From the NCBI GenBank assembly GCA_030688545.1, contig JAUYHT010000005.1, positions 1 through 11,052 on the forward strand: a stretch of 11,052 nt of DNA, written 5' to 3'. Below, in pieces: positions 1 to 11,052 of this stretch. The notes under the pieces are model-generated. The model was not told the DNA's origin and did no database searches. It saw only the letters and a program-made list of their open reading frames with translations. Position numbers and translations under genes: made by a program. Every line of letters begins with the position of its first letter. Within the stretch, counting starts at the first letter, position 1. The DNA comes from Candidatus Iainarchaeum sp. GTDB lineage: Archaea; Iainarchaeota; Iainarchaeia; Iainarchaeales; VGJJ01.

Positions 1-1
1 G

Positions 2-2851
2 GATGTGAATGCCTGCCGGGCCAACCAGACGTTTTCCTCCTGCTTTCCCGATGCCAATGTAAGCCAAGTAACCGCGGGCACTCCCATCCCTAACTCCGCT
101 ACTCCCGTGCACGGCCGCCGAATATTCTTCAAGCAACAACCCTCCTCCCAATGCACCGACACCTTCCTCTCGCATCCGGGGGGATGGAATGATCTTTTCA
201 TGCAGGGCCCTGACGCGCGGTTTCAAGGATCGCCGGATGTGAACATTGTTCTGGATGTCAATGTCACCCCGGACGGGCCTTACTATTGTGACCAGAATAT
301 TTCTGTTACTTTATCCATCACCGCCAATGCCGGCACACGCAAACCGGTGGATGTGATGGTGGTGTTCGACAAATCAGGAAGCATGAGTTGGGGGGGCCAA
401 CTCTCGACTTCCGATGCTCTCGGTATCGCCCTCTCAACAAGCACCGCGCTTATCGCGGACAGCTCGGGGGGGTTGCGGGATATCAATGTTGCCAACCCCG
501 GCCTGCCCATGTTCTTCGACACCTATAATTCTCCCGGAATCGGCCGGGATGTGGACGCTTTCGGAAACTATGCGTATCTCGCGGACGGCACGCAAGGATT
601 AAGGGTCGTTGGCATCTCAAACCCCATCAATATCTTTCCAGTGGCCCAGGTGGATGTGGGAGGGGGCGCTTATGGGGTCGCGGCGGAGGGCGATAAAACC
701 TATGTGGTCACGTTTTCGTCGTCCAATGTGGATGAAAGCATGACCGCCGGTACCAACCAGGTCCTGGTGATTGGACGCAATGCGTCCAACCTATTCGCCG
801 CCCAATCCTTCATCCCCAGCGTGGATTTCGTGAGCGGCGCCATGGCATACGTGCGCCGAGTAGGCAACCCTATTGGTAATCTGGAGGTGAATATCCGCGC
901 CACGCTCAATGGGCCTAACTTAGGCACCGCTACGTTATCCCCTGGAAGCCTATCGGCTTCCTACCAAAGCGCTATCGTCTCTTTTCCATCCATCATCCCC
1001 CTCACGAGTGGTTCCACCTACTATTTGGTGCTCACCACCCCCTCTACTAATAATTCCAATTATTACCAATGGGGCGCACGCAATGGCAATGCTTATTCCA
1101 GGGGGAACGCCTACCAAAATACATCCTCCCAGAATTGGGATGCCCGTTTTCAAACGCATTTTATTGATGGATTAATTGTATTGGATACCAGCACCCCCAC
1201 TTCGCCGACTATCATTGGAGCGGCTAGTCTGGATGACGGGTGGCGGGTGTGGGTGGATGGTGGCTATGCCTATGTTGCTGATGGAATCTCGGGAATGCGT
1301 ATTTTTGACGTGACCCAAAACACTCCCCAGGAGGTGGGTTTTTACAACACATCCGGCTACGCCTATGAAGTCAGTGTGGACTACCCTTATGCGTTCGTCT
1401 CCGACGGTCTGGCGGGGGTGAGGTTCTTTGACATCTCTAATCCTTCTTCTCCCAACCTTCTCAGCACGTATAACACTCCCGGCACGGCCTACGCGGCAAG
1501 GGCAGATGGCACCATTCTTTATGTGGCCGATGGAAGTTCCCTGCAGGTGTTGGATTTCAGCACCATCAATACCCCCGCCTTTATCGATGCCTACACAACC
1601 CCCTACCGCTACCGGGATCTCGAGATAAACAACGGGTGGGCGTACCTCGCGGTCGATAATGCCATCCCCGGGCTCATCACCATTGATTTGTCCCAGGGCC
1701 CCAAAGTGGATCAGGCCATCGTCGCGGCCCAGACATTCATTGATTTCAATGGGTGGAGTGTTCTGCAGGATCAGATGGGGTTGGTTACCTACAACACCCT
1801 TTCGTACCTCGATGAAGTACTGACCTCCAATTTCGCGGCGGTGCGCAACACCATTGGAAACATTGTGGCATTTGGCGGCACCGCCACGGGATCCGCCATC
1901 GACAGGGCCACTAACGAATTACAGAGTGTGCGGGCGAACCCACTCGCATTGAAATTCCAGGTCCTCATGTCGGACGGCCAAACCAATTATGGAACAGACC
2001 CCGACACCGCCGCCATCGCCGCGGCCAATGCTAATATCATCATCTACACGATCGGCTTCGGTGCCGATGCGGATGAAGATGAACTCAAGAGCATCGCCTC
2101 CATTACGGGGGGCCAATACTACTTCGCCTCCGACGCCAATGCGCTCGTGGATATATACGCGCTCATCGCCCAGAACATCCAGAACCTCGCCACGGATGCC
2201 AACATCAGCACCTTCTTCGATCCGGGAACCATTCTTGTGGATGATGGAAATGGTTCCTTCTCCAATGGCACCCTCGTCTTCGACATCAACACTCAACTCC
2301 CACCCCCCTGGATGGCCTCTTACATATTCAATATCCCCTGCGATTCCCAGCTCGCGTGCGAGACGCAGGTCATTTCCATCCCCTCCCCGGGAACCTTTTT
2401 CGAATACATTGACACCAATGGGGAGTCAGTGAGAGTGGATTGGAATGTATTCGTGACGGATATCTTCAACCAACGCGACCTCAACATTCAAATTCATTCC
2501 GGCGACATCCTTTCCCCCGGAAATGTGGATTTAGGAGTGGAAGTGATCAGCGCTGGGACGTTGGATGCGCCTTCTTCCGAAGTGCGTTTCTACCGCGGCC
2601 CACCCACGCAGAATGATGTGCTCGCCTCCCATACGGTTCCTCCATTATGCGGCCAAGCGGACCCGGTGTGCGCTGCATACGCCTATACCTTCACCCAGAA
2701 CCTGGGGGCCGAAGGGGAATTGTATGCTGTGGTGAATCCGGATGGGATCATTCCAGAGTGTTCCTACAACAACGAGGATGTCATCTTCTGCTACGCATTA
2801 CCCAATACTCAATTCTTCACCCTGGATTATTGGGCGTGGTTGCATGAATAA
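2..2851 (+). CDS. Large surface adhesin-like protein, 5' partial. It has a vWA/MIDAS domain split by an LVIVD-repeat beta-propeller, followed by a beta-sandwich region and a CARDB-like C-terminal domain.
   Basis: The reading frame is open to the window edge, and the first 30 aa contain no signal peptide or hydrophobic N-terminus, so the gene probably starts upstream. The GTG at position 5 is only the ORF-caller start. vWA motifs: VDVMVVFDKSGSMSW (DxSxS at D122/S124/S126), GGTATGSAI (T626), LMSDGQTN (D657), IIIYTIGFG and ITGGQYYFASD. LVIVD-type repeats: YAYLADGTQGLRVVGISNP, YAYVADGISGMRIFDVTQ, YAFVSDGLAGVRFFDISNPSSP, LYVADGSSLQVLDFS and AYLAVDNAIPGLITIDLS. The C-terminus (aa ~824-930) ends in AVVNPDGIIPECSYNNEDV, which resembles the CARDB terminal signature. 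The stop TAA is at 2849-2851. Confidence 0.9.
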   Translation, partial: DVNACRANQTFSSCFPDANVSQVTAGTPIPNSATPVHGRRIFFKQQPSSQCTDTFLSHPGGWNDLFMQGPDARFQGSPDVNIVLDVNVTPDGPYYCDQNISVTLSITANAGTRKPVDVMVVFDKSGSMSWGGQLSTSDALGIALSTSTALIADSSGGLRDINVANPGLPMFFDTYNSPGIGRDVDAFGNYAYLADGTQGLRVVGISNPINIFPVAQVDVGGGAYGVAAEGDKTYVVTFSSSNVDESMTAGTNQVLVIGRNASNLFAAQSFIPSVDFVSGAMAYVRRVGNPIGNLEVNIRATLNGPNLGTATLSPGSLSASYQSAIVSFPSIIPLTSGSTYYLVLTTPSTNNSNYYQWGARNGNAYSRGNAYQNTSSQNWDARFQTHFIDGLIVLDTSTPTSPTIIGAASLDDGWRVWVDGGYAYVADGISGMRIFDVTQNTPQEVGFYNTSGYAYEVSVDYPYAFVSDGLAGVRFFDISNPSSPNLLSTYNTPGTAYAARADGTILYVADGSSLQVLDFSTINTPAFIDAYTTPYRYRDLEINNGWAYLAVDNAIPGLITIDLSQGPKVDQAIVAAQTFIDFNGWSVLQDQMGLVTYNTLSYLDEVLTSNFAAVRNTIGNIVAFGGTATGSAIDRATNELQSVRANPLALKFQVLMSDGQTNYGTDPDTAAIAAANANIIIYTIGFGADADEDELKSIASITGGQYYFASDANALVDIYALIAQNIQNLATDANISTFFDPGTILVDDGNGSFSNGTLVFDINTQLPPPWMASYIFNIPCDSQLACETQVISIPSPGTFFEYIDTNGESVRVDWNVFVTDIFNQRDLNIQIHSGDILSPGNVDLGVEVISAGTLDAPSSEVRFYRGPPTQNDVLASHTVPPLCGQADPVCAAYAYTFTQNLGAEGELYAVVNPDGIIPECSYNNEDVIFCYALPNTQFFTLDYWAWLHE

Positions 2852-3845
2852 GCACTCCAATCAACGTGGGGTGCTATTCACCTTCCTCACCTTCCTCCTA
2901 GTGGGGGTGGTCATTTCTCTTGTGGTTTTCTCAGTGAATGTCAACCAACGCACGGCCCGCAACACCATCGACATCTCGGCGCTCAATGCCATCAACGCCA
3001 AATACGACGACATCACGGATGACATTATTACCTTAGACCATCCCATTGGGGTGCCCAGCATCCGTCAACGCATATTCCCTTTTACGTATACTATTGACGC
3101 TAACCGCTTTCATGTCGACCAAACCCTCCCTATTGCCACGGGAAAACTGGGCGCCTACTTCGACCTCATCCATGCCTACCGCCTCTTCGCCATGGACAAA
3201 AATGTCAGCCGCACCTATGATGGGGTGGATGTGATGATTGACCTCCCGCGCCCCCCGGCCTGGGGGGGGACGGCCTCCACGGCTCAATTCAATCTCCTCC
3301 CCCAATGTATCCAATATGCCCTCCGCGACGACACCATGGTGTGGCTAGAAAGCATTTCCCAGTTGGGTTGCTCCAATACCTTCTCGATGAAAGACCAGGT
3401 GGAAAGAGTGGACATCACCCTATCCTTGTTATCCACCGTAGACGACTTCAATGGGGTCGCCTGCTCATTCGACAACACCCCCCAATGCCGCGACGACCCT
3501 TATGACCCCGATTCCCCATTTCCCTACATCCACCTTTCCTTTCAGGATAGCAACTGCGCGCTATGCCCACCCACCTATCCCCTCATCATCCGCGGCCATT
3601 TCGATCCCGAATTCCCAAACACGATTGCTTATTCCTGCGGGGACGCCAATTGTGTATCTTCTCCCATCATAGTGCAATTCAGTGAAGGGGTGCGTGTTAC
3701 CCACGCCGGCACCCCCATTCGACTTGAAATGGACATGACATTTGTCCAGAAAATAGCGACCTTCTATTATCAGGACGCCAACTATAACGTTCGAAAACCG
3801 GGGTTCGACACCTACAAGAGCAATGCGGTGGTGTTCCCGACATGA
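2844..3845 (+). CDS. Type IV pilin-like protein (archaeal class III signal peptide) with a large Cys-rich extracellular domain; candidate minor pilin or adhesin subunit
   Basis: The ATG at 2844 overlaps the upstream stop (ATGAATAA), which suggests translational coupling. The N-terminus MNKHSNQRG/VLFTFLTFLLVGVVISLVVFSV has a short charged leader, R at -2 and G at -1, then about 22 hydrophobic residues. That is the layout of archaeal prepilin-peptidase (PibD/FlaK-type) substrates. There is no Glu at +5, unlike bacterial T4a/Flp pilins. The predicted mature part contains 8 Cys. The 2742 start in the ORF track lies inside the upstream gene and was not used. Confidence 0.7.
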   Translation: MNKHSNQRGVLFTFLTFLLVGVVISLVVFSVNVNQRTARNTIDISALNAINAKYDDITDDIITLDHPIGVPSIRQRIFPFTYTIDANRFHVDQTLPIATGKLGAYFDLIHAYRLFAMDKNVSRTYDGVDVMIDLPRPPAWGGTASTAQFNLLPQCIQYALRDDTMVWLESISQLGCSNTFSMKDQVERVDITLSLLSTVDDFNGVACSFDNTPQCRDDPYDPDSPFPYIHLSFQDSNCALCPPTYPLIIRGHFDPEFPNTIAYSCGDANCVSSPIIVQFSEGVRVTHAGTPIRLEMDMTFVQKIATFYYQDANYNVRKPGFDTYKSNAVVFPT

Positions 3846-4960
3846 AGACTATGGATCTCTTCGCTCTCGCCTTGGCGCTCATCGTGGGGGGCGGGCTCTT
3901 CTACTATCTCATTTACCAACCCTACACCGAAACACCCGCTACGGCCCCCACCTGGACGATTGATGCTCCGTCCTCAGTGGGGGTGGGAGAATCTTTTAAC
4001 CTGACCATCACCCTCACAGGGGGGGATGGCCAGATGCTGACGCTCCAGCAGGACGAAAAGGAGTCCCAATCCCTCTGCTCGGGCGACCCATGTATCGTTT
4101 CATTCCCCCTCCGGTTCGACGCCGCTGGATTACAAATTCTGATTATCCGCCTCGGCCAATCCTTTCGACAAGTGGCAATTCCCGCCACCCAAACGGGACG
4201 CGTGTGCCTCGATGCCACCCTTGAAGGGCAGTGTTCCCAAACCCTTCCTTATCGGTGTTCGAACACCCACCTCATTGTCGATTGTGACAGGTGTGGGTGT
4301 CCAAAAGGGTTGGTGTGCACGAACACCGAATGTGTCGCGCCCCCTTTATCATTAACCATTTCCGCGCTTCTTGTCGACGAGGTGGCCTATTCGACACGCC
4401 CGGTGTCCCTTACCATTACCATCCATAATGACACAGAACATTCCGTGGAGGATATCTTCCTCTTCTTCATCGACGCGCTTGATAATAATATGGTTATCCA
4501 AACCACTCCCCAAACCGCGGTCTTCACCTTGCCTCCGCAAGGCAATCAGTCATTCACATTCTCATTCCGCCTTCCCGAGAATACACAAGCATTACGCGCC
4601 CGCCTGCACGAAAACACACCCCCCTACTCTTCCGATCACGCGCTTGCGACTTCGGAAGATATCCCTATCCACGTGATAATTGACAATGATCCCCCCGCAC
4701 CCCCCACCGGGCTCACATTCCAAAACCCCTATCTTGAATGGGTCGCTTCGATATCCCCCGACACGGAGGTTTACATCATTTACCAACAGGACTTAGCCGC
4801 GGGGGGATTCACTACCTATTCTATATTCGGGGAAACCCCCGACACCCACTATCTCCTTCCCCCCCAACTCGAGGCCCGCGCCTATGTCATCCGCGCGCGA
4901 GATCATGCTGGTAACCTGGGAAGCCCCTCTGACCCCCTCCTGGTTCCCGCCACCCCTTAA
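3842..4960 (+). CDS. N-terminally membrane-anchored surface protein with Ig/CARDB-like modules, an 8-Cys cluster and a C-terminal fibronectin type III-like domain
   Basis: The ATG at 3842 overlaps the upstream TGA (ATGA, 4-nt overlap). The N-terminus MKTMDLFALALALIVGGGLFYYLIY is a single hydrophobic helix with no obvious K/R-G cleavage motif. There are 8 Cys within aa 122-164 (CLDATLEGQCSQTLPYRCSNTHLIVDCDRCGCPKGLVCTNTEC). The C-terminus PPAPPTGLTFQNPYLEWVASISPDTEVYIIYQQD...YVIRARDHAGNLGSPSD looks like an Fn3 domain. Confidence 0.75.
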   Translation: MKTMDLFALALALIVGGGLFYYLIYQPYTETPATAPTWTIDAPSSVGVGESFNLTITLTGGDGQMLTLQQDEKESQSLCSGDPCIVSFPLRFDAAGLQILIIRLGQSFRQVAIPATQTGRVCLDATLEGQCSQTLPYRCSNTHLIVDCDRCGCPKGLVCTNTECVAPPLSLTISALLVDEVAYSTRPVSLTITIHNDTEHSVEDIFLFFIDALDNNMVIQTTPQTAVFTLPPQGNQSFTFSFRLPENTQALRARLHENTPPYSSDHALATSEDIPIHVIIDNDPPAPPTGLTFQNPYLEWVASISPDTEVYIIYQQDLAAGGFTTYSIFGETPDTHYLLPPQLEARAYVIRARDHAGNLGSPSDPLLVPATP

Positions 4961-4965
4961 AAACT
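4957..4965 (+). promoter_or_regulatory. Candidate archaeal TATA box (TTAAAAACT) for a leaderless transcript starting near the ATG at 4985
   Basis: This is the only A/T-rich element in a C-rich context. The octamer TAAAAACT starts exactly 27 nt upstream of the ATG at 4985. The identical octamer sits 27 nt upstream of the ATG at 10519. It overlaps the TAA stop of the upstream gene (4958-4960). Confidence 0.4.
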
Positions 4966-4984
4966 CCAAATCAATTTTTCTCCC

Positions 4985-5494
4985 ATGGAACGTCCCCCGG
5001 CTCCCCCCCACCCTTTCTGGAATGGGTTAACCAAACTCCTCCACCTGCATACCGCCCCCTCGCCAGGAAAGGAGGCTGCCTCTTTTTTACGCCCACCCAT
5101 TTCCACTATTTCACCCCCCCGCCCCGTGCGCGGGCCGTCCATCCCAATACCCACCATACCCCCCCGTCAGCGTTCACTTCTCCCACAAGGGTATGTCTCT
5201 TCCCCCCAAACCCCACCCCCTTCTCCTCTTCCCACACGAACCCGATCACCTAATCCTTCTTCCATGCCGCGCCAGGAGGAAGATCCATTCATCGTCACCG
5301 ACTATGATAAGATTCTCGAACTCGTGAAGAGCCGCCGCGCCATCAAACTGGATGAGATCGCCCGGCTATTAGGGCTCATGGAAGAGAAGGTGGCGCAAGA
5401 ACTCCAAACCCTGGAAGACAATGGTCTAGTCGACGTGAAATACCCCGCATTCGGGGAACCCATCATCCTCTACAAAGAACCCGTGGCTCGGTGA
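4985..5494 (+). CDS. Small winged-helix (wHTH) DNA-binding protein, with a Pro-rich low-complexity N-terminal extension if the 4985 start is real; the alternative start at 5264 gives a 76-aa wHTH-only protein
   Basis: The C-terminal 75 aa (DYDKILELVKSRRAIKLDEIARLLGLMEEKVAQELQTLEDNGLVDVKYPAFGEPIILY) have an HTH-plus-wing pattern. The stop at 5492-5494 lies 4 nt before the ATPase start. The first 93 codons are Pro/Ser/Thr-rich and read from a C-rich, G-poor tract, so they could be non-coding. The TATA-like box at -27 favours 4985. A mini hairpin plus T6 at 5072-5088 inside the ORF argues against it. Confidence 0.55.
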   Translation: MERPPAPPHPFWNGLTKLLHLHTAPSPGKEAASFLRPPISTISPPRPVRGPSIPIPTIPPRQRSLLPQGYVSSPQTPPPSPLPTRTRSPNPSSMPRQEEDPFIVTDYDKILELVKSRRAIKLDEIARLLGLMEEKVAQELQTLEDNGLVDVKYPAFGEPIILYKEPVAR

Positions 5495-5498
5495 AAAA

Positions 5499-6983
5499 AT
5501 GGCGACCCTGGACTCCTACCAAATCCCCTCCTCCATCCCCCTGCAAATTGATATCCGCACGGAGGAAAATGAGTTCGTCAACATCTACCACCTCCACACC
5601 CCCCGCGTGGGTTTGGGAACACGTGCCCTCCTCAATGACCTCAAATCCAGGATCATCTCGGAAGTGAACATCTCATCCGAAAAGATGCTCGACGCCAAAT
5701 TCGTGGGGGAACTCCGCACCCAATTCAGCGAAAAAGCCGAGGAACTCCTGTTGAAGGAATTACCCACCCTCTCAACCCTGGAAAGGAAACAGCTCGCGGC
5801 CATATTGCTCAATGAGATGGTGGGGTTAGGGCCCATCGAATTCCTATTGGATGACGGAAACCTCGAGGAAATCGTGGTGAACTCCGCCCAAGAACCCATA
5901 TGGGTGTACCACAAGAAACACGGGTGGCTGAAAACCAACATCACCCTCCACCCGGAGGCGGAGATACAGAACTATGCCAGCATCATTGCTCGGCGCGTGG
6001 GCAAACAAGTCACCATCCTCAACCCTCTTCTGGATGCCCACCTCATCACGGGGGACCGGGCCAACTCCACCCTCTTCCCTATATCATCACGCGGCAACAC
6101 CCTCACCATCCGCCGATTCCGCCGCGACCCTTGGACGGTAACGGATTTCAATTCAAGCAAAACCTCCACTCCTGAACTCATGGCCCTCATCTGGCTGGCC
6201 ATGGAATACGAACTGAACATCATCGTCTCCGGGGGAACAGGGAGTGGAAAGACCACCTTGTTGAATGTCATGCTCCCCTTCATCCAACCCAATCAGCGCG
6301 TGATTACTATAGAAGACACTCGTGAACTTTCTCTTCCCGACTTTTTACACTGGGTGCCCATGACGACGCGTGAGCCAAACTCGGAGGGCAAAGGATCCAT
6401 CACCATGTTGGATTTGCTCGTGAACTCATTGCGAATGCGCCCCGACCGAATTATTGTGGGGGAAATCCGACGCCAAAGGGAAGCGGAAGTGATGTTCGAA
6501 GCCATGCACACCGGACACTCCGTATATGCCACGGTGCACGCCAATACGGCAGAAGAAACCATTAATCGTCTCGTCAGCCCGCCCATTGAGATTGCCCCCG
6601 CCCTCTTGGAAGCGGTGCACCTGAATGTGGTGATGTTCCGCAACCGGCGATTGGGGGTGCGCCGTATCCTTCAACTGGCGGAGTTCGTTCCCATGAAGAC
6701 GGGGAGCGAAGGCAAAACCCAACTGAAACCCAATATCCTCTACCGCTGGCGCGCCGCCAATGATTCCATCGAGAAATACGCCGAAAGCATTCGCCTCTAC
6801 GACGAATTGGCTTTACACACGGGCTACACCCACCAGGAGATCAACCAAAACCTGGTGGAGAAAAAGAAGATCCTCGACTGGATGGGCACCCAAAAGTTGC
6901 GCGACATCAATGACGTAGGGAAGGTGATGGCTCAATACTACAGTGACCCCGATGCCATCCTCAAACGAGCCGGGGTGAAATGA
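5499..6983 (+). CDS. Type II/IV secretion-system ATPase of the FlaI/ArlI / PilB / TadA(CpaF) superfamily (T2SSE); the assembly motor of the pilus-like apparatus
   Basis: Walker A is SGGTGSGKTT (nt 6231-6257). The Asp box is VITIEDTRELSL. Walker B is RPDRIIVGEIR (from nt 6438). The His box is MHTGHSVYATVHAN. The upstream segment ANSTLFPISSRGNTLTIRRF and LIWLAMEYELNIIVSG resemble archaeal FlaI-type sequences (compare PRGSSFTIRKF and LWLAIEHKFSAIVVG, recalled from memory). Confidence 0.95.
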   Translation: MATLDSYQIPSSIPLQIDIRTEENEFVNIYHLHTPRVGLGTRALLNDLKSRIISEVNISSEKMLDAKFVGELRTQFSEKAEELLLKELPTLSTLERKQLAAILLNEMVGLGPIEFLLDDGNLEEIVVNSAQEPIWVYHKKHGWLKTNITLHPEAEIQNYASIIARRVGKQVTILNPLLDAHLITGDRANSTLFPISSRGNTLTIRRFRRDPWTVTDFNSSKTSTPELMALIWLAMEYELNIIVSGGTGSGKTTLLNVMLPFIQPNQRVITIEDTRELSLPDFLHWVPMTTREPNSEGKGSITMLDLLVNSLRMRPDRIIVGEIRRQREAEVMFEAMHTGHSVYATVHANTAEETINRLVSPPIEIAPALLEAVHLNVVMFRNRRLGVRRILQLAEFVPMKTGSEGKTQLKPNILYRWRAANDSIEKYAESIRLYDELALHTGYTHQEINQNLVEKKKILDWMGTQKLRDINDVGKVMAQYYSDPDAILKRAGVK

Positions 6984-6987
6984 CTAT

Positions 6988-7881
6988 ATGATCGTGCGTT
7001 TCACGATGCCCTTCAGCCTGCTCCCCATGCCCATGCTCCGCTGGGCGAGCAAACACTTCATCGGGTTGGGCAGCCAATTCGGAAAAATGCTGCCCCTTCA
7101 CGACAGCGACATGAAAAAAGCCGAATTTCCAGTGACGGTGAAGGAGTATGCCACCATGTCCATGGTGATCGTGCTCTTCTATTTCATCTTCTTCTCATTC
7201 CTTTTCTTCGTAATGAGCTTCCGCCTATTAGGGACACTGGACTTGCTCACCCCGCTCGGGGTGAGTTTCTTCCTCTCGTTCCTGGTTCTGCTCCAACTGA
7301 TCACGTATCCCATTATCAAGGTCAAGAAGAAAGTGCGCGATCTGGATAGGAATTTGGTGTACGCCCTCCGCACCATCCTCGTTCAACTCTACTCCGGGGT
7401 CTCATTGTATGATGCCATGAAGGTGGTGGCCGAAGGCAACTATGGCGCCGTATCCAAGGAATTCAAGAAGGCGGTTGATCGCATCTCCACCGGGGAAATA
7501 CAAGAGGTGGCCCTGGAACGCATCGCGGAATACAACCCCAGCCTCTATTTCCGCCGCGCCATCTGGCAAATAGTAAACGGGATGAAGGCCGGAGCGGATG
7601 TCACCGCGGTCCTTGCCGAGAGCGTGAACTCATTGACGGACGCCCAATCCATCCAGATTAGGAATTATGAATCCCAGATGAAAGTCCTTTCCCTCGTGTA
7701 CATGATGCTCGGGGTCATCGTCCCCGCGCTGGGAATCACCTTCCTCATTGTCCTATCCTCATTCCCCCAAATCCAGGTGAGCGAGACCTATTTTTGGATC
7801 CTCCTCCTGTTCGTGGGGGTGGGACAATTTATGTTCCTGGGCGTGGTGAAGAGCAAGCGTCCCACTCTGCTGGGAGAATAA
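6988..7881 (+). CDS. Polytopic membrane platform protein with a single T2SSF domain (TadB-like; equivalent to the N-terminal half of FlaJ/PilC)
   Basis: There is a 4-nt gap after the ATPase stop, and a GGTGA element lies about 8 nt upstream of the ATG. Hydrophobic helices flank a cytoplasmic helical domain, LVYALRTILVQLYSGVSLYDAMKVVAEGNYGAVSKEFKKAVDRISTGEIQEVALERIAEYNPSLYFRRAIWQIVNGMKAGADVTAVL, which is typical of T2SSF. The exact start is uncertain because internal Met codons exist. Confidence 0.85.
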   Translation: MIVRFTMPFSLLPMPMLRWASKHFIGLGSQFGKMLPLHDSDMKKAEFPVTVKEYATMSMVIVLFYFIFFSFLFFVMSFRLLGTLDLLTPLGVSFFLSFLVLLQLITYPIIKVKKKVRDLDRNLVYALRTILVQLYSGVSLYDAMKVVAEGNYGAVSKEFKKAVDRISTGEIQEVALERIAEYNPSLYFRRAIWQIVNGMKAGADVTAVLAESVNSLTDAQSIQIRNYESQMKVLSLVYMMLGVIVPALGITFLIVLSSFPQIQVSETYFWILLLFVGVGQFMFLGVVKSKRPTLLGE

Positions 7882-7883
7882 AA

Positions 7884-7888
7884 AGGAG
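7884..7888 (+). promoter_or_regulatory. Shine-Dalgarno-like AGGAG for the second platform gene
   Basis: In AAAAGGAGAAAAAGGTATG, the GGAG ends 8 nt before the ATG at 7897. It sits in the 15-nt intergenic gap after the TAA at 7879-7881. Confidence 0.6.
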
Positions 7889-7896
7889 AAAAAGGT

Positions 7897-8904
7897 ATGT
7901 CGGCTGACATTGGCATTCCCGTATTGCGGGAAATACAAGATGCGTTTGAAACGCAGTTCCGCTACCTCGGCATGCGGATATCTTCTCGAAAATTTGTCAT
8001 CAACATCGTCCTGATGGCCTTCGTATTAGGGGTGCTATCTACCATTATCACCTCCATTTTCCTCCAATGGAATATCATCCTCGTCTTCTTAGGAGCGGCC
8101 GTTGTATCCCTAGGGTTCATCGGCGCGACCTACCTTTTGCTCGATCTCCAAACGGAGGGGCGGGGCAGCCAAGTCGAAAAAATCCTTCCCGATGCGCTGC
8201 AACTCATCGCGAGCAACATCAAATCAGGGTTAACCACGGAACGCGCCCTCCTGGTGTCGGCGCGCCCCGAATTCGGGCCATTGGAAACCGAACTGAAACG
8301 GGTATCCACCCGCATCCTCTCGGGAATGCCAGTGGAGAAAGCCATTCTGGAGATTCCCCGCCACATCAAATCAACATTAGTTGAGCGTACCGTCTGGCTG
8401 CTCGCCCGAGGCATTTCTTCTGGGGGGGAAATAGCGGATCTCCTCTTACAACTTTCTCGCAACCTCCGCACCCAATTGGCGTTGCAGAGCGAGGCCCGCG
8501 CCTCCATTTCTATTTATCTAATTCTCATCTTCTTCTCCGCGGCATTCGGGGGACCCGCGCTGTATGCGGTGTCGTCGTTCATTGTGCAGGTCATGGCCTC
8601 CCAGATATCATCCACCCCGCAAGTAGACCCAGGGGTGCTCGCCCAAGCGGGATCGCGCTTCTCTGGATTGAGTGGGTTTATCAGCGGGCAAGGAGAGATA
8701 GTTGATCCCCAATTCATCGTCTTGTTCGCCCAAATCATGCTCTTCGTAGGAGGCATATTCGCCTCGCTCATATTGGGGGCCATCGCCACCGGAAGAGAAA
8801 AGGACGGGGTGAAATACATCCCCGTGGTACTGCTTTTCTCATTCGGCCTATTTTATCTTGTACGGTTCGTCCTGGTGGCGGCTTTCGGGGATCTGCTGCT
8901 TTAG
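7897..8904 (+). CDS. Second polytopic membrane platform protein with a single T2SSF domain (TadC-like; equivalent to the C-terminal half of FlaJ/PilC)
   Basis: The T2SSF-like cytoplasmic domain is ILPDALQLIASNIKSGLTTERALLVSARPEFGPLETELKRVSTRILSGMPVEKAILEIPRHIKSTLVERTVWLLARGISSGGEIADLLLQLSRNL. It is flanked by N-terminal hydrophobic helices (IVLMAFVLGVLSTIITSIFL, IILVFLGAAVVSLGFIGATYLLL) and several C-terminal ones. An SD element lies upstream. Confidence 0.85.
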   Translation: MSADIGIPVLREIQDAFETQFRYLGMRISSRKFVINIVLMAFVLGVLSTIITSIFLQWNIILVFLGAAVVSLGFIGATYLLLDLQTEGRGSQVEKILPDALQLIASNIKSGLTTERALLVSARPEFGPLETELKRVSTRILSGMPVEKAILEIPRHIKSTLVERTVWLLARGISSGGEIADLLLQLSRNLRTQLALQSEARASISIYLILIFFSAAFGGPALYAVSSFIVQVMASQISSTPQVDPGVLAQAGSRFSGLSGFISGQGEIVDPQFIVLFAQIMLFVGGIFASLILGAIATGREKDGVKYIPVVLLFSFGLFYLVRFVLVAAFGDLLL

Positions 8905-9010: not shown

Positions 9011-9050
9011 ACTTAAAGATAGTTTAAAATACTTTAAGATACTTTAAGAT
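9011..9050 (+). repeat. Four tandem copies of a 10-bp unit (consensus ACTTTAAGAT) immediately upstream of the ATG at 9054
   Basis: The four units are ACTTAAAGAT (9011-9020, 1 mismatch), AGTTTAAAAT (9021-9030, 2 mismatches), ACTTTAAGAT (9031-9040) and ACTTTAAGAT (9041-9050). The second unit contains the TATA-like box. Confidence 0.8.
9023..9031 (+). promoter_or_regulatory. Candidate archaeal TATA box (TTTAAAATA) for a leaderless transcript of the 9054 gene
   Basis: It matches TTTAWATA-type archaeal TATA consensus sequences. It spans -31 to -23 relative to the ATG at 9054. No SD-like element lies between it and the ATG. Confidence 0.45.
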
Positions 9051-9053
9051 TGA

Positions 9054-10409
9054 ATGACTGTAGAAGAGCTCCTGAGTCAAGAGGAAAGCGAGTCGCTCGA
9101 AAGAAAGTCCAGTATAGCCGATTCAAAAGGCATTGGAGAAACGGCTTGTGCGTTCGCTAACCAGCCATCTGGTGGGTTTTTCCTAATTGGGGTAGATAAA
9201 GCAGGAAACGTAGTTGGTGTTCCCTCACAAAAGGTGGATGATTGGACTCAAGCGGTTGCGAGTATTATTCAGTCTGCAAGGCCAGTACCAAAAGCTGATT
9301 TCAAAATAGTTGAAAATAATGCCAAAAAGATCTTGGTTGTTCAGGTGCATTCAGTGAATGACGAATATGCTTGCTTCTATCATGGAAAAATATACGTCCG
9401 AGTTGGAAATACAACACGTGCATTAAATGAAAAGGAGTTAATTGATTTTTTGCGTGTAAGGCAAATCCTTAGTTTTGAGGAAACAGTTTCAAGCGTCAAA
9501 TTAGAAGATATTGAAAATTCCAAGGTTCAAGAATACCTAAAACTTCGAAATGAAAAAATAAGTCTAAATGAAAAAACGGCCCTTCAAAATATGGGGTTAC
9601 TGAAAGGCCCAAATAAAGAAACTCCTACAAATTTGGCCCTTCTATTTTTTGCCCGAAAAATCGAAGCAGTTATTCCACAAAGCGAAATACGGTTAACTCG
9701 GTTTAAGGGGGTTGAGCCCATTCATATTGCGAATACTCAGCGGCTTACGGCCACTCTCATTGATGCAATCGAAAAAACGATTGGATTCATTGATTTATAC
9801 ACTGAAAAAGAGGTAATAATCCAGTTAACCCGAAGAACCGAAAAGCCAACTTATCCTCTTGAAGTAATTCGTGAAGCCGTGATCAATGCGTTGGGGCATC
9901 GGGATTACTTTAATCAAAATGCGACTCAAGTAAGCATTTTTGATGATCGCGTTGAAATAACAAATCCAGGATCCTTGCCAAAGGGACTGCCCATTTCACA
10001 GCTCGGCAGACTGAGCGTCCATCGAAATCCAAGATTGTATCAATTGCTCAGTCATGCGAAATACGGTGAAGGGCTCGGGACTGGAATTCCACGAATGATT
10101 GAACGGATGCGTGCTTGGAAATTGCCTGATCCAAAATTTGAGGAAATTGGCAACGCTTTTCGCGTGACACTATATAACACTAAAAGTACCCAAAAAATCA
10201 AGCGATTGGAACTAACTCCGCTTCAGGAAAAAATACTCCAGCTTATCCGTGAATCCAAAAGTACAAAAACGAAGACGCTTACTGAAAAAACTAACTATTC
10301 TGCACCGACAATCATTAATAATCTGAATGAACTTGAAAAAAGAGGGCTGATTAAAAAAATAGGTAAGACACGCGGGGCTCATTACATTTTACGAAAAGGC
10401 AGCACTTGA
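9054..10409 (+). CDS. AlbA_2 (Schlafen-like / divergent AAA_4) - HATPase_c_4 - C-terminal wHTH protein, COG2865-type; commonly annotated as a putative transcriptional regulator or RecG-like C-terminal domain protein
   Basis: The N-terminus EESESLERKSSIADSKGIGETACAFANQPSGGFFLIGVDKAGNVVGV ... KILVVQVHS ... IYVRVGNTTRALNEKEL fits the AlbA_2 pattern (E..lE.K ... AfAN..GG.l.iGV.d.G.vvG ... yiR.G..t). The middle region YPLEVIREAVINALGHRDYFNQNATQVSIFDDRVEITNPGSLPKG ... HRNPRLYQLL ... GEGLGTGIPRMIERM fits HATPase_c_4. The C-terminus LTPLQEKILQLIRESKSTKTKTLTEKTNYSAPTIINNLNELEKRGLIKKIGKTRGAHYIL is a wHTH. Confidence 0.9.
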   Translation: MTVEELLSQEESESLERKSSIADSKGIGETACAFANQPSGGFFLIGVDKAGNVVGVPSQKVDDWTQAVASIIQSARPVPKADFKIVENNAKKILVVQVHSVNDEYACFYHGKIYVRVGNTTRALNEKELIDFLRVRQILSFEETVSSVKLEDIENSKVQEYLKLRNEKISLNEKTALQNMGLLKGPNKETPTNLALLFFARKIEAVIPQSEIRLTRFKGVEPIHIANTQRLTATLIDAIEKTIGFIDLYTEKEVIIQLTRRTEKPTYPLEVIREAVINALGHRDYFNQNATQVSIFDDRVEITNPGSLPKGLPISQLGRLSVHRNPRLYQLLSHAKYGEGLGTGIPRMIERMRAWKLPDPKFEEIGNAFRVTLYNTKSTQKIKRLELTPLQEKILQLIRESKSTKTKTLTEKTNYSAPTIINNLNELEKRGLIKKIGKTRGAHYILRKGST

Positions 10410-10499: not shown

Positions 10500-10518
10500 G
10501 AGCGCTTTGAATTTCGAT

Positions 10519-11025
10519 ATGAGTGAAGATATTGCAAAGAAAAAACTGTTTTTTCAAGCTCCTCCAGAGAAACTTACTGGAATTGCGAAGTCGATTCAAG
10601 ACTCTATTGACTCACTTAATAATATGTTCAAGCCACTCCCCATTTTTATCCCCGAATCTCCTCTCGTCATTCAAGAACGGAACCAGTGGGCCCGACATGA
10701 TGAAATGGTTGGAATTTTGAAAAGCGGTTCAAATCAACAAAATTTGTTGAGTTACATTGCAACGGTTGCAGCCTTGGTCGGATCTATTCCAACGGTTGAT
10801 ATCTTGATTGAATATGGGTTCATTACACCGGAGATTGGAAAGAGTTTGATAATGCTTCTTTCCTTTGGGCTAATCATTGCGCTTTTTCTCTTTGTAGTGT
10901 ACTATTGCGTACTTAATGTTAGATCTGCGGCTGAAAAAAAGCAACCTGAAAGTTTGACATTGAAGAACGAAAGTGACAAAGAGCTTGAGGATCAGGAGGG
11001 CTTTGTTAGCGCTATAGCGCTATAG
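10519..11025 (+). CDS. Hypothetical small membrane protein: soluble N-terminal half, two predicted TM helices and an acidic C-terminal tail
   Basis: The ATG at 10519 (MSEDIAKKK...) is preferred over the TTG at 10507 in the ORF track. The hydrophobic segments are LLSYIATVAALVGSIPTVDILI and SLIMLLSFGLIIALFLFVVYYCVL. I recognise no family. The last 5 codons and the TAG stop (11023-11025) lie inside the terminal tandem repeat. Confidence 0.55.
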   Translation: MSEDIAKKKLFFQAPPEKLTGIAKSIQDSIDSLNNMFKPLPIFIPESPLVIQERNQWARHDEMVGILKSGSNQQNLLSYIATVAALVGSIPTVDILIEYGFITPEIGKSLIMLLSFGLIIALFLFVVYYCVLNVRSAAEKKQPESLTLKNESDKELEDQEGFVSAIAL

Positions 11026-11052
11026 CACTATAGCGCTATAGCACTATAGCGC
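11008..11052. repeat. Tandem array of the palindromic octamer GCTATAGC, alternating with ACTATAGC (16-bp super-period), truncated by the window end
   Basis: The units are GCTATAGC (11011-18), GCTATAGC (11019-26), ACTATAGC (11027-34), GCTATAGC (11035-42), ACTATAGC (11043-50) and GC... to the window end. GCTATAGC is its own reverse complement. Confidence 0.85.

Follow-up and report, generated by a model that had tools for sequence, protein, structure and literature searches.

The stretch of DNA analyzed here, hereafter the window, is a whole contig of 11,052 bp from a Candidatus Diapherotrites (Iainarchaeota) metagenome-assembled genome (MAG). We consider it likely, from comparison with related loci, that the 7 plus-strand genes in positions 1 to 8,904 are the last 7 genes of an operon of ~10–11 genes, conserved among DPANN archaea, that encodes a non-motility, adhesive type IV pilus (T4P) of the Epd/Tad-like ("System 1") lineage. 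The system is a poorly studied DPANN variant of a known machine and involves no new principle. An initial annotation of the window had suggested an attachment apparatus built on archaeal T4P/Tad-like machinery, together with a list of unusual features; the suggestion of one attachment apparatus of archaeal Tad/Epd-like type holds up in outline, but the list falls away, as the adhesins appear to be pilins themselves and the candidate major pilin lies upstream of the contig end.

Gene layout of the window

Genes are labeled g1 to g11 by their order in the operon of relatives, and the window carries a partial g5 through g11. They encode, in order, a putative minor pilin of modular build whose adhesive head is nested, from a gene truncated at its 5' end (g5, 1–2851; 948 aa in the window; based on Pfam, the AlphaFold2 [AF2] model, and orthologues), a minor pilin-like protein with a Cys-rich globular part (g6, 2844–3845; 333 aa; N-terminus, Cys conservation, and synteny), a membrane-anchored Ig/8-Cys/Ig/Fn3 protein (g7, 3842–4960; 372 aa; family profile), an acidic winged helix-turn-helix (wHTH) protein (g8, 4985–5494; 169 aa; weak wHTH matches and orthologue motifs), a T2SSE/VirB11-type assembly ATPase resembling the CpaF/TadA-like archaeal pilus ATPases (g9, 5499–6983; 494 aa; Pfam T2SSE), and 2 platform proteins with one T2SSF domain each (g10, 6988–7881, Pfam T2SSF and NCBIfam ArlJ; g11, 7897–8904, Pfam T2SSF and NCBIfam UpsF). 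The listing of open reading frames (ORFs) and their translation placed all 7 on the + strand with junctions, from g5 to g11, of −8, −4, +24, +4, +4, and +15 nt, identical to the values first given. The domain calls made initially (vWA-propeller, membrane-anchored Cys/Fn3, wHTH, T2SSE, and two T2SSF) were likewise confirmed by Pfam, NCBIfam, and the family profile.

The 5' end of the contig cuts g5, the von Willebrand factor A (vWA) gene, which has lost ~105–110 N-terminal residues relative to orthologues of 1050–1060 aa. Because the contig ends that many codons into the vWA gene, the small major pilin and further pilin-like genes are missing from the window.

The operon in related genomes

The locus set comes from a scan of one genome per species (80 loci), with a first-pass tblastn across 85 loci and then iterated profiles over all locus ORFs. 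Homologues of the ATPase number in the thousands and belong to DPANN archaea, mostly Diapherotrites/Iainarchaeota and also Micrarchaeota. In most Iainarchaeota, the first-pass tblastn already picked up the block 5' of the ATPase; among loci with 6 kb or more of upstream DNA, nearly all keep the order g1-g2-(g3)-g4-g5-g6-(g7)-g8-ATPase-T2SSF-T2SSF. Loci with this order span ATPase identities from 82% down to 52% and contigs labeled Iain-, Micr-, Woese-, and Aenigmarchaeota, and they include the complete genomes CP064981.1 and CP010424.1 (archaeon GW2011_AR10). Exceptions were 2 loci without a pilin block within 10 kb (L028 and L079) and 2 with the pilin block inverted nearby (L014 and L054). 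Syntenic homologues of all 7 window genes occur in dozens of genomes, so the adjacency of the 7 is not due to chance. The suggested comparison of gene neighborhoods thus found the "adhesion" block next to the machinery block in relatives, and the view that the 2 blocks form one conserved functional unit is supported. The architecture is less novel than supposed: it is routine in this ATPase clade, and its general form had already been described for archaeal T4P (PMC4858521; 10.64898/2026.04.22.720090; PMC6393860).

In close relatives (77–82% ATPase identity), the operon is a co-directional cluster of 11 genes, 4 of them upstream of the vWA gene. The products of g1 to g8 measure 134, 534, 385, 162–174, 1050–1058 (vWA/LVIVD), ~328, ~377, and 166–190 aa (wHTH), and are followed by the ATPase and the 2 T2SSF proteins. 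In 3 of these loci (L002, L003, and L005), the operon is flanked upstream by a divergent transglutaminase-like (DUF553/CEP76-peptidase-like) gene and downstream by genes for a KaiC-like ATPase and a DUF7504 (KaiC-related) protein; transglutaminase-like and KaiC-like neighbors have been reported for archaeal T4P loci (PMC4858521). Operon contigs with ATPases 53–63% identical also occur in MAGs labeled Falkowbacteria, Chloroflexota/Chloroflexi, Thaumarchaeota, and Methanosarcinales (L031, L047, L053, L066, L068, and L075), labels that most likely reflect binning contamination by DPANN contigs.

Class III signals and the pilin set

The N-termini of the relatives' 134-aa (MNARA/QVGLEYLVF..., the slash preceding position +1), 534-aa (...SRG/QVSAEYL...), 162-aa (MRNA/QASLPDLLF...), and 328-aa (...CRG/VFFTFLSFIL...) proteins and of their vWA protein (...SRRG/FAFSADIILALVLV...) are predicted class III (prepilin) signals. 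In a census over the families, a class III site was identified in 62 of 66 g1 proteins (with Q at +1 in 57 and an acidic residue, E, at +5 in 57), 49 of 52 g2 proteins (Q at +1, E at +5), 45 of 52 g4 proteins (Q at +1, acidic at +6), and 48 of 58 g5 proteins (F/Y at +1, acidic at +6 in all 48), and in none of the g3 proteins. The DUF361-type motif of System 1 pilins (Q+1, QxSxE) was present in the g1, g2, and g4 families, all of them seen in relatives.

The g1 consensus, [KR][GA]/Q-x-[SG]-x-E-Y-L, is of DUF361 type, and the mature protein of ~125–135 aa has the layout of a pilin, with invariant Q+1/E+5, a hydrophobic alpha1-N, an amphipathic alpha1-C, and beta strands. Of 24 g1 proteins, 15 matched Pfam Class_IIIsignal (PF04021/DUF361), whose defining members are euryarchaeal pilins processed by EppA; a profile search with g1 was empty against PDB and returned Class_IIIsignal alone against Pfam, and a single member had a very weak TadE match (E 0.25). 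Found at the head of the operon in 47 loci, g1 is the candidate small major pilin, predicted to lie just beyond the contig end here. An extra 385-aa membrane-anchored gene, g3, stands between the second and third pilin genes (L003, 2546–3703); it is confined to the closest 13 loci, would fall beyond the 5' end of the window, and has weak PLD-like/TrmB-C-like and lamin-tail-domain matches.

The pilin-like gene retained whole in the window is g6, which overlaps g5 by 8 nt, starts MNKHSNQRG/VLFTFLTFLLVGVV..., and bears the class III signal QRG/VLFTF. Its orthologues, viewed by eye, share a [KR]G/[VIL][LF]F N-terminus, which a strict automatic filter accepted in 23 of 57, the motif having no acidic residue. 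Within the family, G9 is invariant and 7 Cys are nearly so. The gene is syntenic in 55 loci, and neither the Pfam scan nor profile searches against PDB and Pfam returned a named family for it.

By these signals, the predicted pilin block consists of 5 genes: g1, g2, g4, g5, and g6. That the window holds no small major pilin, and that the "334-aa" protein is its only pilin-like gene, had both been remarked at the outset. Literally, each holds for the window, but both are artefacts of the contig edge: a small pilin (g1) heads the operon in relatives, where 3 of the 4 extra upstream genes and the vWA protein carry class III signals as well. The proposed three-gene adhesion cassette is really part of the five-pilin block, with the 372-aa gene detected in only about a third of loci. 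Nor are the adhesins the cargo of a pilin-less machine, as the vWA protein and the 333-aa protein themselves carry class III signals and g1 is there in relatives. One major pilin plus 4 minor pilin-like proteins matches the composition of the Epd pilus in Methanococcus maripaludis, where EpdE is the major pilin and is joined by EpdA-D, and g2, g4, g5, and g6 parallel the 4 core minor pilins of bacterial T4P and type II secretion systems (T2SS).

A vWA/propeller protein as predicted modular pilin

The window protein of g5, in which residue n corresponds to nt 5 + 3(n − 1), matched Pfam VWA (1.8e-17) and LVIVD (1.2e-22), and its AF2 model has a mean pLDDT of 86.4, with nested domains above 90. 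Strand betaA of the vWA (residues 115–122) and loop 1 of the metal ion-dependent adhesion site (MIDAS), VMVVFDKSGSMS (D122, S124, and S126), are encoded at 347–385 (+), as placed by the alignment and AF2. Directly after this loop, the vWA is interrupted by an insert (residues ~129–561; 389–1687, +), an LVIVD beta-propeller with a nested beta-sandwich (~264–385), recognized from the LVIVD repeats and from all-beta DSSP assignments at pLDDT >90; the beta-sandwich gave a weak choice-of-anchor R match at residues 290–376. The rest of the vWA fold follows, from alpha1 to alpha7 (residues ~562–730; 1688–2194, +), with the MIDAS residues T626 and D657 and alternating helices and strands in DSSP, and the Pfam VWA match covers residues 567–718, corresponding to profile positions 16–172. 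C-terminal beta-domains (strands 732–945; 2198–2851, +), defined by DSSP and alignment, hold conserved Cys pairs and the terminal pilin-module motif ...FFTLDYWAWLHE.

An alignment of 46 g5 sequences showed D122, S124, S126, T626, and D657 of the MIDAS to be invariant, together with G125, M127, and G658; 4 Cys pairs were invariant as well, and in the C-terminal region so were C779, C785, C919, C929, and W945. Sequence and model agree on an intact DxSxS...T...D MIDAS on a Rossmann-like alpha/beta fold, for which metal binding is predicted. The combination of VWA with LVIVD was found in ~55 clusters of the homologue search, all from DPANN archaea; beyond these came bacterial LVIVD propellers alone. 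Foldseek with the window model gave as best matches vWA proteins, among them two found at pilus tips, the adhesin SpaC (sortase pilus) and Mfa5 (type V pilus). Generic propellers and generic vWA proteins dominated the whole-model list, no global template for the whole model was obtained, and PilY1 was absent from the top 50.

The class III N-terminus of g5 was read in relatives, its absence from the window being due to the contig end. Full-length orthologues start with [KR][GA]/[FY]AFSxD followed by a hydrophobic helix (the 48 of 58 members counted above), and the AF2 model of one of them, P0138 (pLDDT 85.1), has N-terminal helices at 18–34 and 41–62 and then a small beta-sheet, a predicted pilin-like module. 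The g5 family combines a class III signal, a pilin module, and a non-T4P module, which is how a modular type IV pilin is defined by Raynaud et al. (2021).

What lies between the 2 ends of the pilin varies widely. Among 54 g5 orthologues, 40 had the vWA, 23 the propeller, and 11 the beta-sandwich as well, and the spacing from the MIDAS loop to helix alpha1 took values of 40, ~95–150, ~245, ~290, ~435, and 726–942 aa. Other loci, from distant relatives, among them L014, L019, L057, L062, L065, L071, and L074–L076, have at the same gene position a bare g5 of 145–175 aa. These small versions, assigned by profile and gene position, keep the N-terminal [KR]G/[FY][VI]F[ST]xD and a C-terminal ...YWxW[LI]K that also ends the large proteins. 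Because the small versions share both motifs with the large ones, the adhesive head appears to be inserted within the pilin fold. Orthologue N-termini, alignment, and models together demonstrate for g5 the predicted build of a pilin with an adhesive head set into its globular part, namely a vWA with an intact MIDAS and an LVIVD propeller beside it, and the nesting order appears to be pilin, vWA with MIDAS, LVIVD propeller, and beta-sandwich, from outside to inside. A hypervariable module beside an invariant MIDAS is what would be expected of a ligand-recognition surface.

Duplications were seen at 2 loci. In L027 (1–9950), 2 tandem pilin blocks (g2-g4-g5-g6, then g1-g2-g4-g5-g6) precede one ATPase, and the g5 is a 958-aa vWA-propeller protein in one block and a small, bare 147-aa copy in the other; L020 (1777–6473) has 2 tandem vWA-type g5 genes. 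Such duplicates suggest alternative tips for one motor.

ATPase, platform, and clade placement

An ATPase with a T2SSF platform is the conserved core of archaeal T4P and archaella and of bacterial Tad pili. In g9 (Pfam T2SSE, 3.3e-39), the Walker A (GGTGSGKTT at 245), Walker B (DRIIVGE at 316), and His box (at 338) motifs are intact. Against PDB, it scored 226 bits with afGspE (full length), 193 with CpaF, and 170 with FlaI. The best NCBIfam match was FlaI, at 269 bits for an equivalog cutoff of 550, and the bindosome ATPase model BasE gave 141 bits for a cutoff of 1000. Orthologues are named "CpaF family" or "TadA" by NCBI (PGAP), and some are called "FlaI" by JGI. In a four-point distance test on 250 ungapped core columns, using simple distances and 3 PDB references (CpaF, afGspE, and FlaI), each DPANN ATPase tried joined CpaF against afGspE plus FlaI in 85–99% of 200 bootstraps. 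These scores and the quartet test support an archaeal, non-archaellar ATPase of probable Tad/Epd-like type, in line with the T4P/Tad-like machinery described at the outset. PilB3_C was not found in the window ATPase even at E 10 and matched weakly in some orthologues. Several close orthologues of 670–679 aa (P0009, P0014, P0017, and P0086) contain an intein (Pfam Intein_splicing), located in P0009, the only one scanned, at residues 293–457, a short way past the Walker A region; the window ATPase has none.

Each platform gene covers a different half of a known single protein. The g10 product (Pfam T2SSF, 3.2e-14) matched NCBIfam ArlJ at profile positions 15–248, in the N-half of ArlJ/UpsF, and that of g11 (Pfam T2SSF, 7.2e-14) matched NCBIfam UpsF at profile positions 263–423, in the C-half of UpsF/ArlJ; the platform is therefore split, with the 2 genes by the ATPase that characterize System 1. 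T2SSF genes adjoin the ATPase in 80 loci out of the 85, and no locus with sufficient DNA downstream lacks either of them. With the ATPase, the platform, and subunits carrying class III signals (g6 in the window; g1, g2, g4, and g5 in relatives), the motor, platform, and subunit components that define a system of the type IV filament (TFF) superfamily were identified. The quartet, the 2 platform genes, the Q(+1) DUF361-type pilins, the transglutaminase-like neighbor, and the CpaF/TadA names speak for a place in the Epd/Tad-like lineage (Makarova clade 1, "System 1").

The accessory genes g7 and g8

The g7 gene (locus tag Q8P05_02910) overlaps g6 in an ATGA. Single-sequence Pfam and NCBIfam scans of its product were empty, and a homologue search returned only the protein itself; its family was assembled from locus translations. 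The architecture consists of a transmembrane anchor (a lipobox in some relatives), an Ig-like domain, an 8-Cys module, a second Ig-like domain, and a C-terminal Fn3, for which the family profile reached E 6.8e-8 against Fn3 chains, with the Fn3 signature present. Ten Cys are invariant, C79 and C84 in the N-terminal Ig-like domain and 8 in the module (C122–C164), which follows the pattern C-x-DGT-x2-G-x-CS-x3-P-x-YC-...-C-x2-CGC-...-C-...-C. The census found no consistent class III site in the family, and the gene was detected in 28 loci only. It encodes an envelope or membrane-anchored accessory protein that is neither universal nor demonstrably an adhesin.

The g8 protein has weak Pfam/NCBIfam wHTH matches (HVO_A0114, TrmB, and ArsR) and consists of an N-terminal motif, FWNGLTKLLHLH in the window and G(L/F)(L/W)xGLxxILHLH in orthologues, a middle Pro-rich linker of variable length, and a highly conserved C-terminal wHTH (residues ~100–169) ending ...YPAFGEP. 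Because the N-terminal motif is conserved in orthologues, the start at 4985 that was originally chosen is upheld; one public gene call had 5264. Strongly negative GC skew, down to −0.36, was seen at window 4000–5500, which is where g7 ends and where C-rich codons specify the Pro-rich linker. The placement of the wHTH gene directly before the motor ATPase, which had been singled out as a peculiarity of the window, recurs in 78 loci, always immediately 5' of the ATPase. Of 76 members, 57 have a negative net charge (about −3 to −4 for the g8 of the window), which is atypical of a DNA-binding domain, if not decisive. Against PDB, the g8 profile gave insignificant matches only. The idea that g8 is a split-off ATPase domain (a Rosetta-stone fusion) was rejected: BLAST against 120 ATPase homologues was empty, and a HMMER scan of 1.84 billion representatives gave, as possible carriers of a g8–ATPase fusion, only orthologues of 91–262 aa with the wHTH C-terminal, plus unrelated proteins of ~500 aa that are not T2SSE ATPases. 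The protein could be a dedicated regulator; a more speculative role is that of a partner to the ATPase or motor.

Comparison with known systems

Clade 1 loci as described by Makarova et al. in 2016 comprise an ATPase, 2 TadC genes, major pilins, at least 5 minor pilins, and large tip adhesins (PMC4858521), and System 1 occurs in DPANN archaea according to the 2026 preprint of Sivabalasarma and Albers (10.64898/2026.04.22.720090). The present operon resembles this Epd/clade 1/System 1 group (M. maripaludis EpdA-L) in its single ATPase followed by 2 single-domain platform genes, its DUF361-type Q+1 pilins, its ~11-gene operon with one major and at least 4 minor class III proteins, its large class III adhesin-like proteins of the kind proposed for the tip, the transglutaminase-like peptidase nearby, and its occurrence in DPANN. 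It differs in that a vWA/LVIVD-propeller head nested in a pilin takes the place of a DUF2341/LamG-type adhesin, that the candidate major pilin has ~125–135 aa with a globular domain rather than the ~70 aa of a Flp-like pilin, and that a wHTH gene is fixed before the ATPase, whose membership of the clade is tentative. EppA, DUF2341, and FleN/MinD/ParA were absent from the Pfam results for the window and the relatives' loci.

With bacterial Tad/Flp systems, the operon has in common a CpaF-like ATPase, a two-gene platform, and a locus with pseudopilins and a vWA pilin-like protein (TadG), whereas its signal motifs are of archaeal type and it belongs to an organism that lacks an outer membrane. 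Pfam results for the window and relatives included no 50–60-aa Flp pilin, TadV, TadZ, RcpA secretin, or TadD, and g5 had no Pfam TadE or Tad (PF13400) match. Nor did the Pfam results for the loci include archaellum parts (ArlF, ArlG, ArlX, ArlCDE, or archaellins).

The closest parallels to g5 itself come from bacterial adhesins. Streptococcus sanguinis PilB (PMC8179133) likewise joins a class III signal and a pilin module to a MIDAS-bearing vWA and is a minor, probably tip-located pilin acting as adhesin. In PilB, however, the vWA is appended after the pilin module, whereas the g5 head appears to lie inside it, as in GspK or ComZ, because the C-terminal pilin motif comes after the head; in addition, the vWA of the archaeal protein bears a whole beta-propeller by its MIDAS, in place of 2 short arms. 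No sequence kinship between g5 and PilB was found beyond the vWA fold. PilY1/PilC of Pseudomonas and Neisseria also combine a vWA with a beta-propeller, are associated with minor pilins, and have proposed roles in adhesion and surface sensing, but PilY1 is a non-pilin that is Sec-exported and docks on minor pilins, whereas g5 has a class III N-terminus, and the PilY1/PilC-type propeller follows the vWA, whereas the LVIVD-type propeller of g5 is inserted in it. The PilY1 family (Pfam Neisseria_PilC) was found in g5 neither by Pfam nor, as already seen, among the top Foldseek matches.

Among DPANN archaea, T4P islands full of unannotated predicted pilins were described by Makarova, Wolf, and Koonin in 2019 (PMC6393860), and Golyshina et al. 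list for the micrarchaeon Mia14 a CpaF-family ATPase followed by 2 TadC genes (PMC5498576, Supplementary Table 2). These "dark-matter" islands share with the operon an ATPase, TadC genes, surface proteins, and predicted divergent pilins, while the reports are without a vWA-propeller modular pilin, a variable insert, bare-pilin orthologues, or a conserved wHTH partner. We did not find described elsewhere either the nested vWA-propeller modular pilin with its hypervariable insert and bare orthologues or the invariable wHTH gene before the ATPase.

The downstream segment

Just past the last T2SSF gene, between 8,905 and 9,050, GC content drops abruptly from ~54% to ~40%. Relatives hold the opposite-strand KaiC-like ATPase at this position; the window instead has a Schlafen-like gene (9054–10409) whose 451-aa product combines, by family matches, Schlafen AlbA_2, HATPase_c_4, and a wHTH, and matches the N-terminal part of the PADLOC pAgo model at E 4e-25. 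It is followed by an ORF of 172 aa with a TTG start and a C-terminal hydrophobic segment (10507–11025), for which Pfam, NCBIfam, and PADLOC gave no family match. The segment looks like a foreign or defense-type insertion and is not part of the pilus system, and the low-GC junction is probably real because an independent Logan contig (L001) shares it. At window 9030–9049, within an AT-rich stretch and 5 nt 5' of the Schlafen-like ATG, there is a perfect tandem duplication, TACTTTAAGA TACTTTAAGA, which may serve as a promoter or operator. At 11007–11052, the 8-nt palindrome TAGCGCTA is repeated in tandem, with variants of the form TAGCACTA; this array probably explains why the assembly stopped at the contig end.

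Proposed mechanism and alternative explanations

Under the adhesive-pilus reading, a prepilin peptidase encoded elsewhere would cleave the class III signals, and the g9 ATPase on its g10/g11 platform would build the filament from g1, the small pilin with Q(+1)/E(+5). The minor pilins g2, g4, g5, and g6 would probably prime assembly and cap the filament. Binding of the g5 head to a ligand, whether on a surface or on a partner cell, would then depend on metal, with the variable insert by the MIDAS setting the specificity. An attachment apparatus, as proposed from the start, is the most reasonable reading, given the invariant MIDAS of the vWA and the hypervariable head adjoining it.

Several points weigh against this reading. 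The whole case is built from sequence, with filament, processing, and binding all predicted, and g1 and the 3 other operon genes outside the contig are deduced from relatives with 77–82% ATPase identity. As had been noted before, there is no prepilin peptidase (class III, A24) in the window, and the Pfam lists covering ±10 kb for 3 close relatives had none either, although a peptidase away from the pilus locus is normal for archaea. The placement of g5 at the tip and the four-pilin priming complex are drawn by analogy with bacterial systems, and the orthology of the small g5 versions comes from profile and gene position, not from a tree. For the ATPase, the quartet uses 3 references and simple distances, and there are clade 2 features to set beside it: the weak PilB3_C matches of some orthologues, the KaiC-like neighbor (KaiC neighbors being reported for clade 2; PMC4858521), and afGspE as the best full-length match. 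Finally, g8 could have either of the roles given above, and no g8–ATPase fusion was seen in the sequences searched.

Among other explanations, the operon might encode a short pseudopilus or bindosome-like device that displays the adhesins in a short surface stub or exports them as a T2SS does. Most of its class III proteins are large or decorated and not simple filament subunits, the ATPase matches BasE weakly, and binding-protein-displaying TFF machines are argued to be widespread in archaea (10.64898/2026.04.22.720090). Even so, we think this unlikely, for the BasE score is far below its cutoff, no substrate-binding-protein domains are present, a small and highly conserved Q+1/E+5 pilin heads the operon in 47 loci, and one major plus 4 minor pilins fits filament-forming Epd and T4P systems (PMC4858521). 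The tight linkage of the wHTH gene to the ATPase in 78 loci could also be taken to mean a competence- or conjugation-like pilus for exchange of DNA or cytoplasm, with the wHTH protein handling DNA and the vWA pilin merely docking, and DPANN archaea have been speculated to use T4P for exchange with their hosts (PMC5498576). The wHTH protein is net acidic in most members, however, the operon has no component peculiar to DNA uptake, and no nuclease, DNA translocase, or ComEC-like protein was found among the called genes within ±10 kb in 3 close relatives, so that such a pilus seems very unlikely. As for a motility organelle, either an archaellum or a retractile twitching pilus that is not mainly an adhesin carrier, FlaI is the best NCBIfam model, JGI labels some orthologues "FlaI," and relatives have a KaiC-like (ArlH-like) gene nearby. 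We regard it as extremely improbable, considering that the FlaI score lies below its cutoff, the quartet separates the ATPase from FlaI, the archaellum parts named above are missing from the loci, the platform is split unlike ArlJ, and a second, retraction ATPase is not present.

The abrupt GC change at ~8.9 kb calls for some caution about the assembly, but that the 2 blocks with unrelated functions were brought together by assembly artefact or chance has a vanishingly small likelihood: there are gene overlaps of 8 and 4 nt, and the same order occurs in dozens of independent assemblies, including the 2 complete genomes. A chimeric join of the blocks was ruled out by the position of the GC break, 3' of the operon and not between them, and by the widespread synteny.

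Within the adhesive-pilus reading, a more specific joint proposal is possible, if doubtful: that g5 is a plug-in adhesin scaffold and that the acidic g8 is an unrecognized, obligatory motor partner and not a DNA-binding regulator. In the scaffold part of this proposal, a bare ~150-aa pilin would have gained a vWA head inside its fold, and the loop on the MIDAS side would be a swap hot spot, holding nothing, a propeller, a propeller plus beta-sandwich, or inserts of 700–940 aa.

Implications for DPANN biology

How DPANN archaea recognize and hold surfaces or hosts is largely unknown, and most lineages, Iainarchaeota included, are uncultivated. The operon belongs to a small number of surface systems that are conserved over several DPANN phyla, and its analysis singles out a likely contact point, a predicted pilin with a MIDAS-bearing vWA head and a lineage-variable insert. 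It also carries the idea of the modular pilin from bacteria to archaea, with unusually deep nesting. For annotation, the "hypothetical" genes beside these ATPases in DPANN MAGs can be named as a pilin set, and the type of g5 insert is a possible marker to correlate with habitat or host. If the plug-in proposal is true, g5 would be the main determinant of the surface or host cell chosen by each DPANN lineage.

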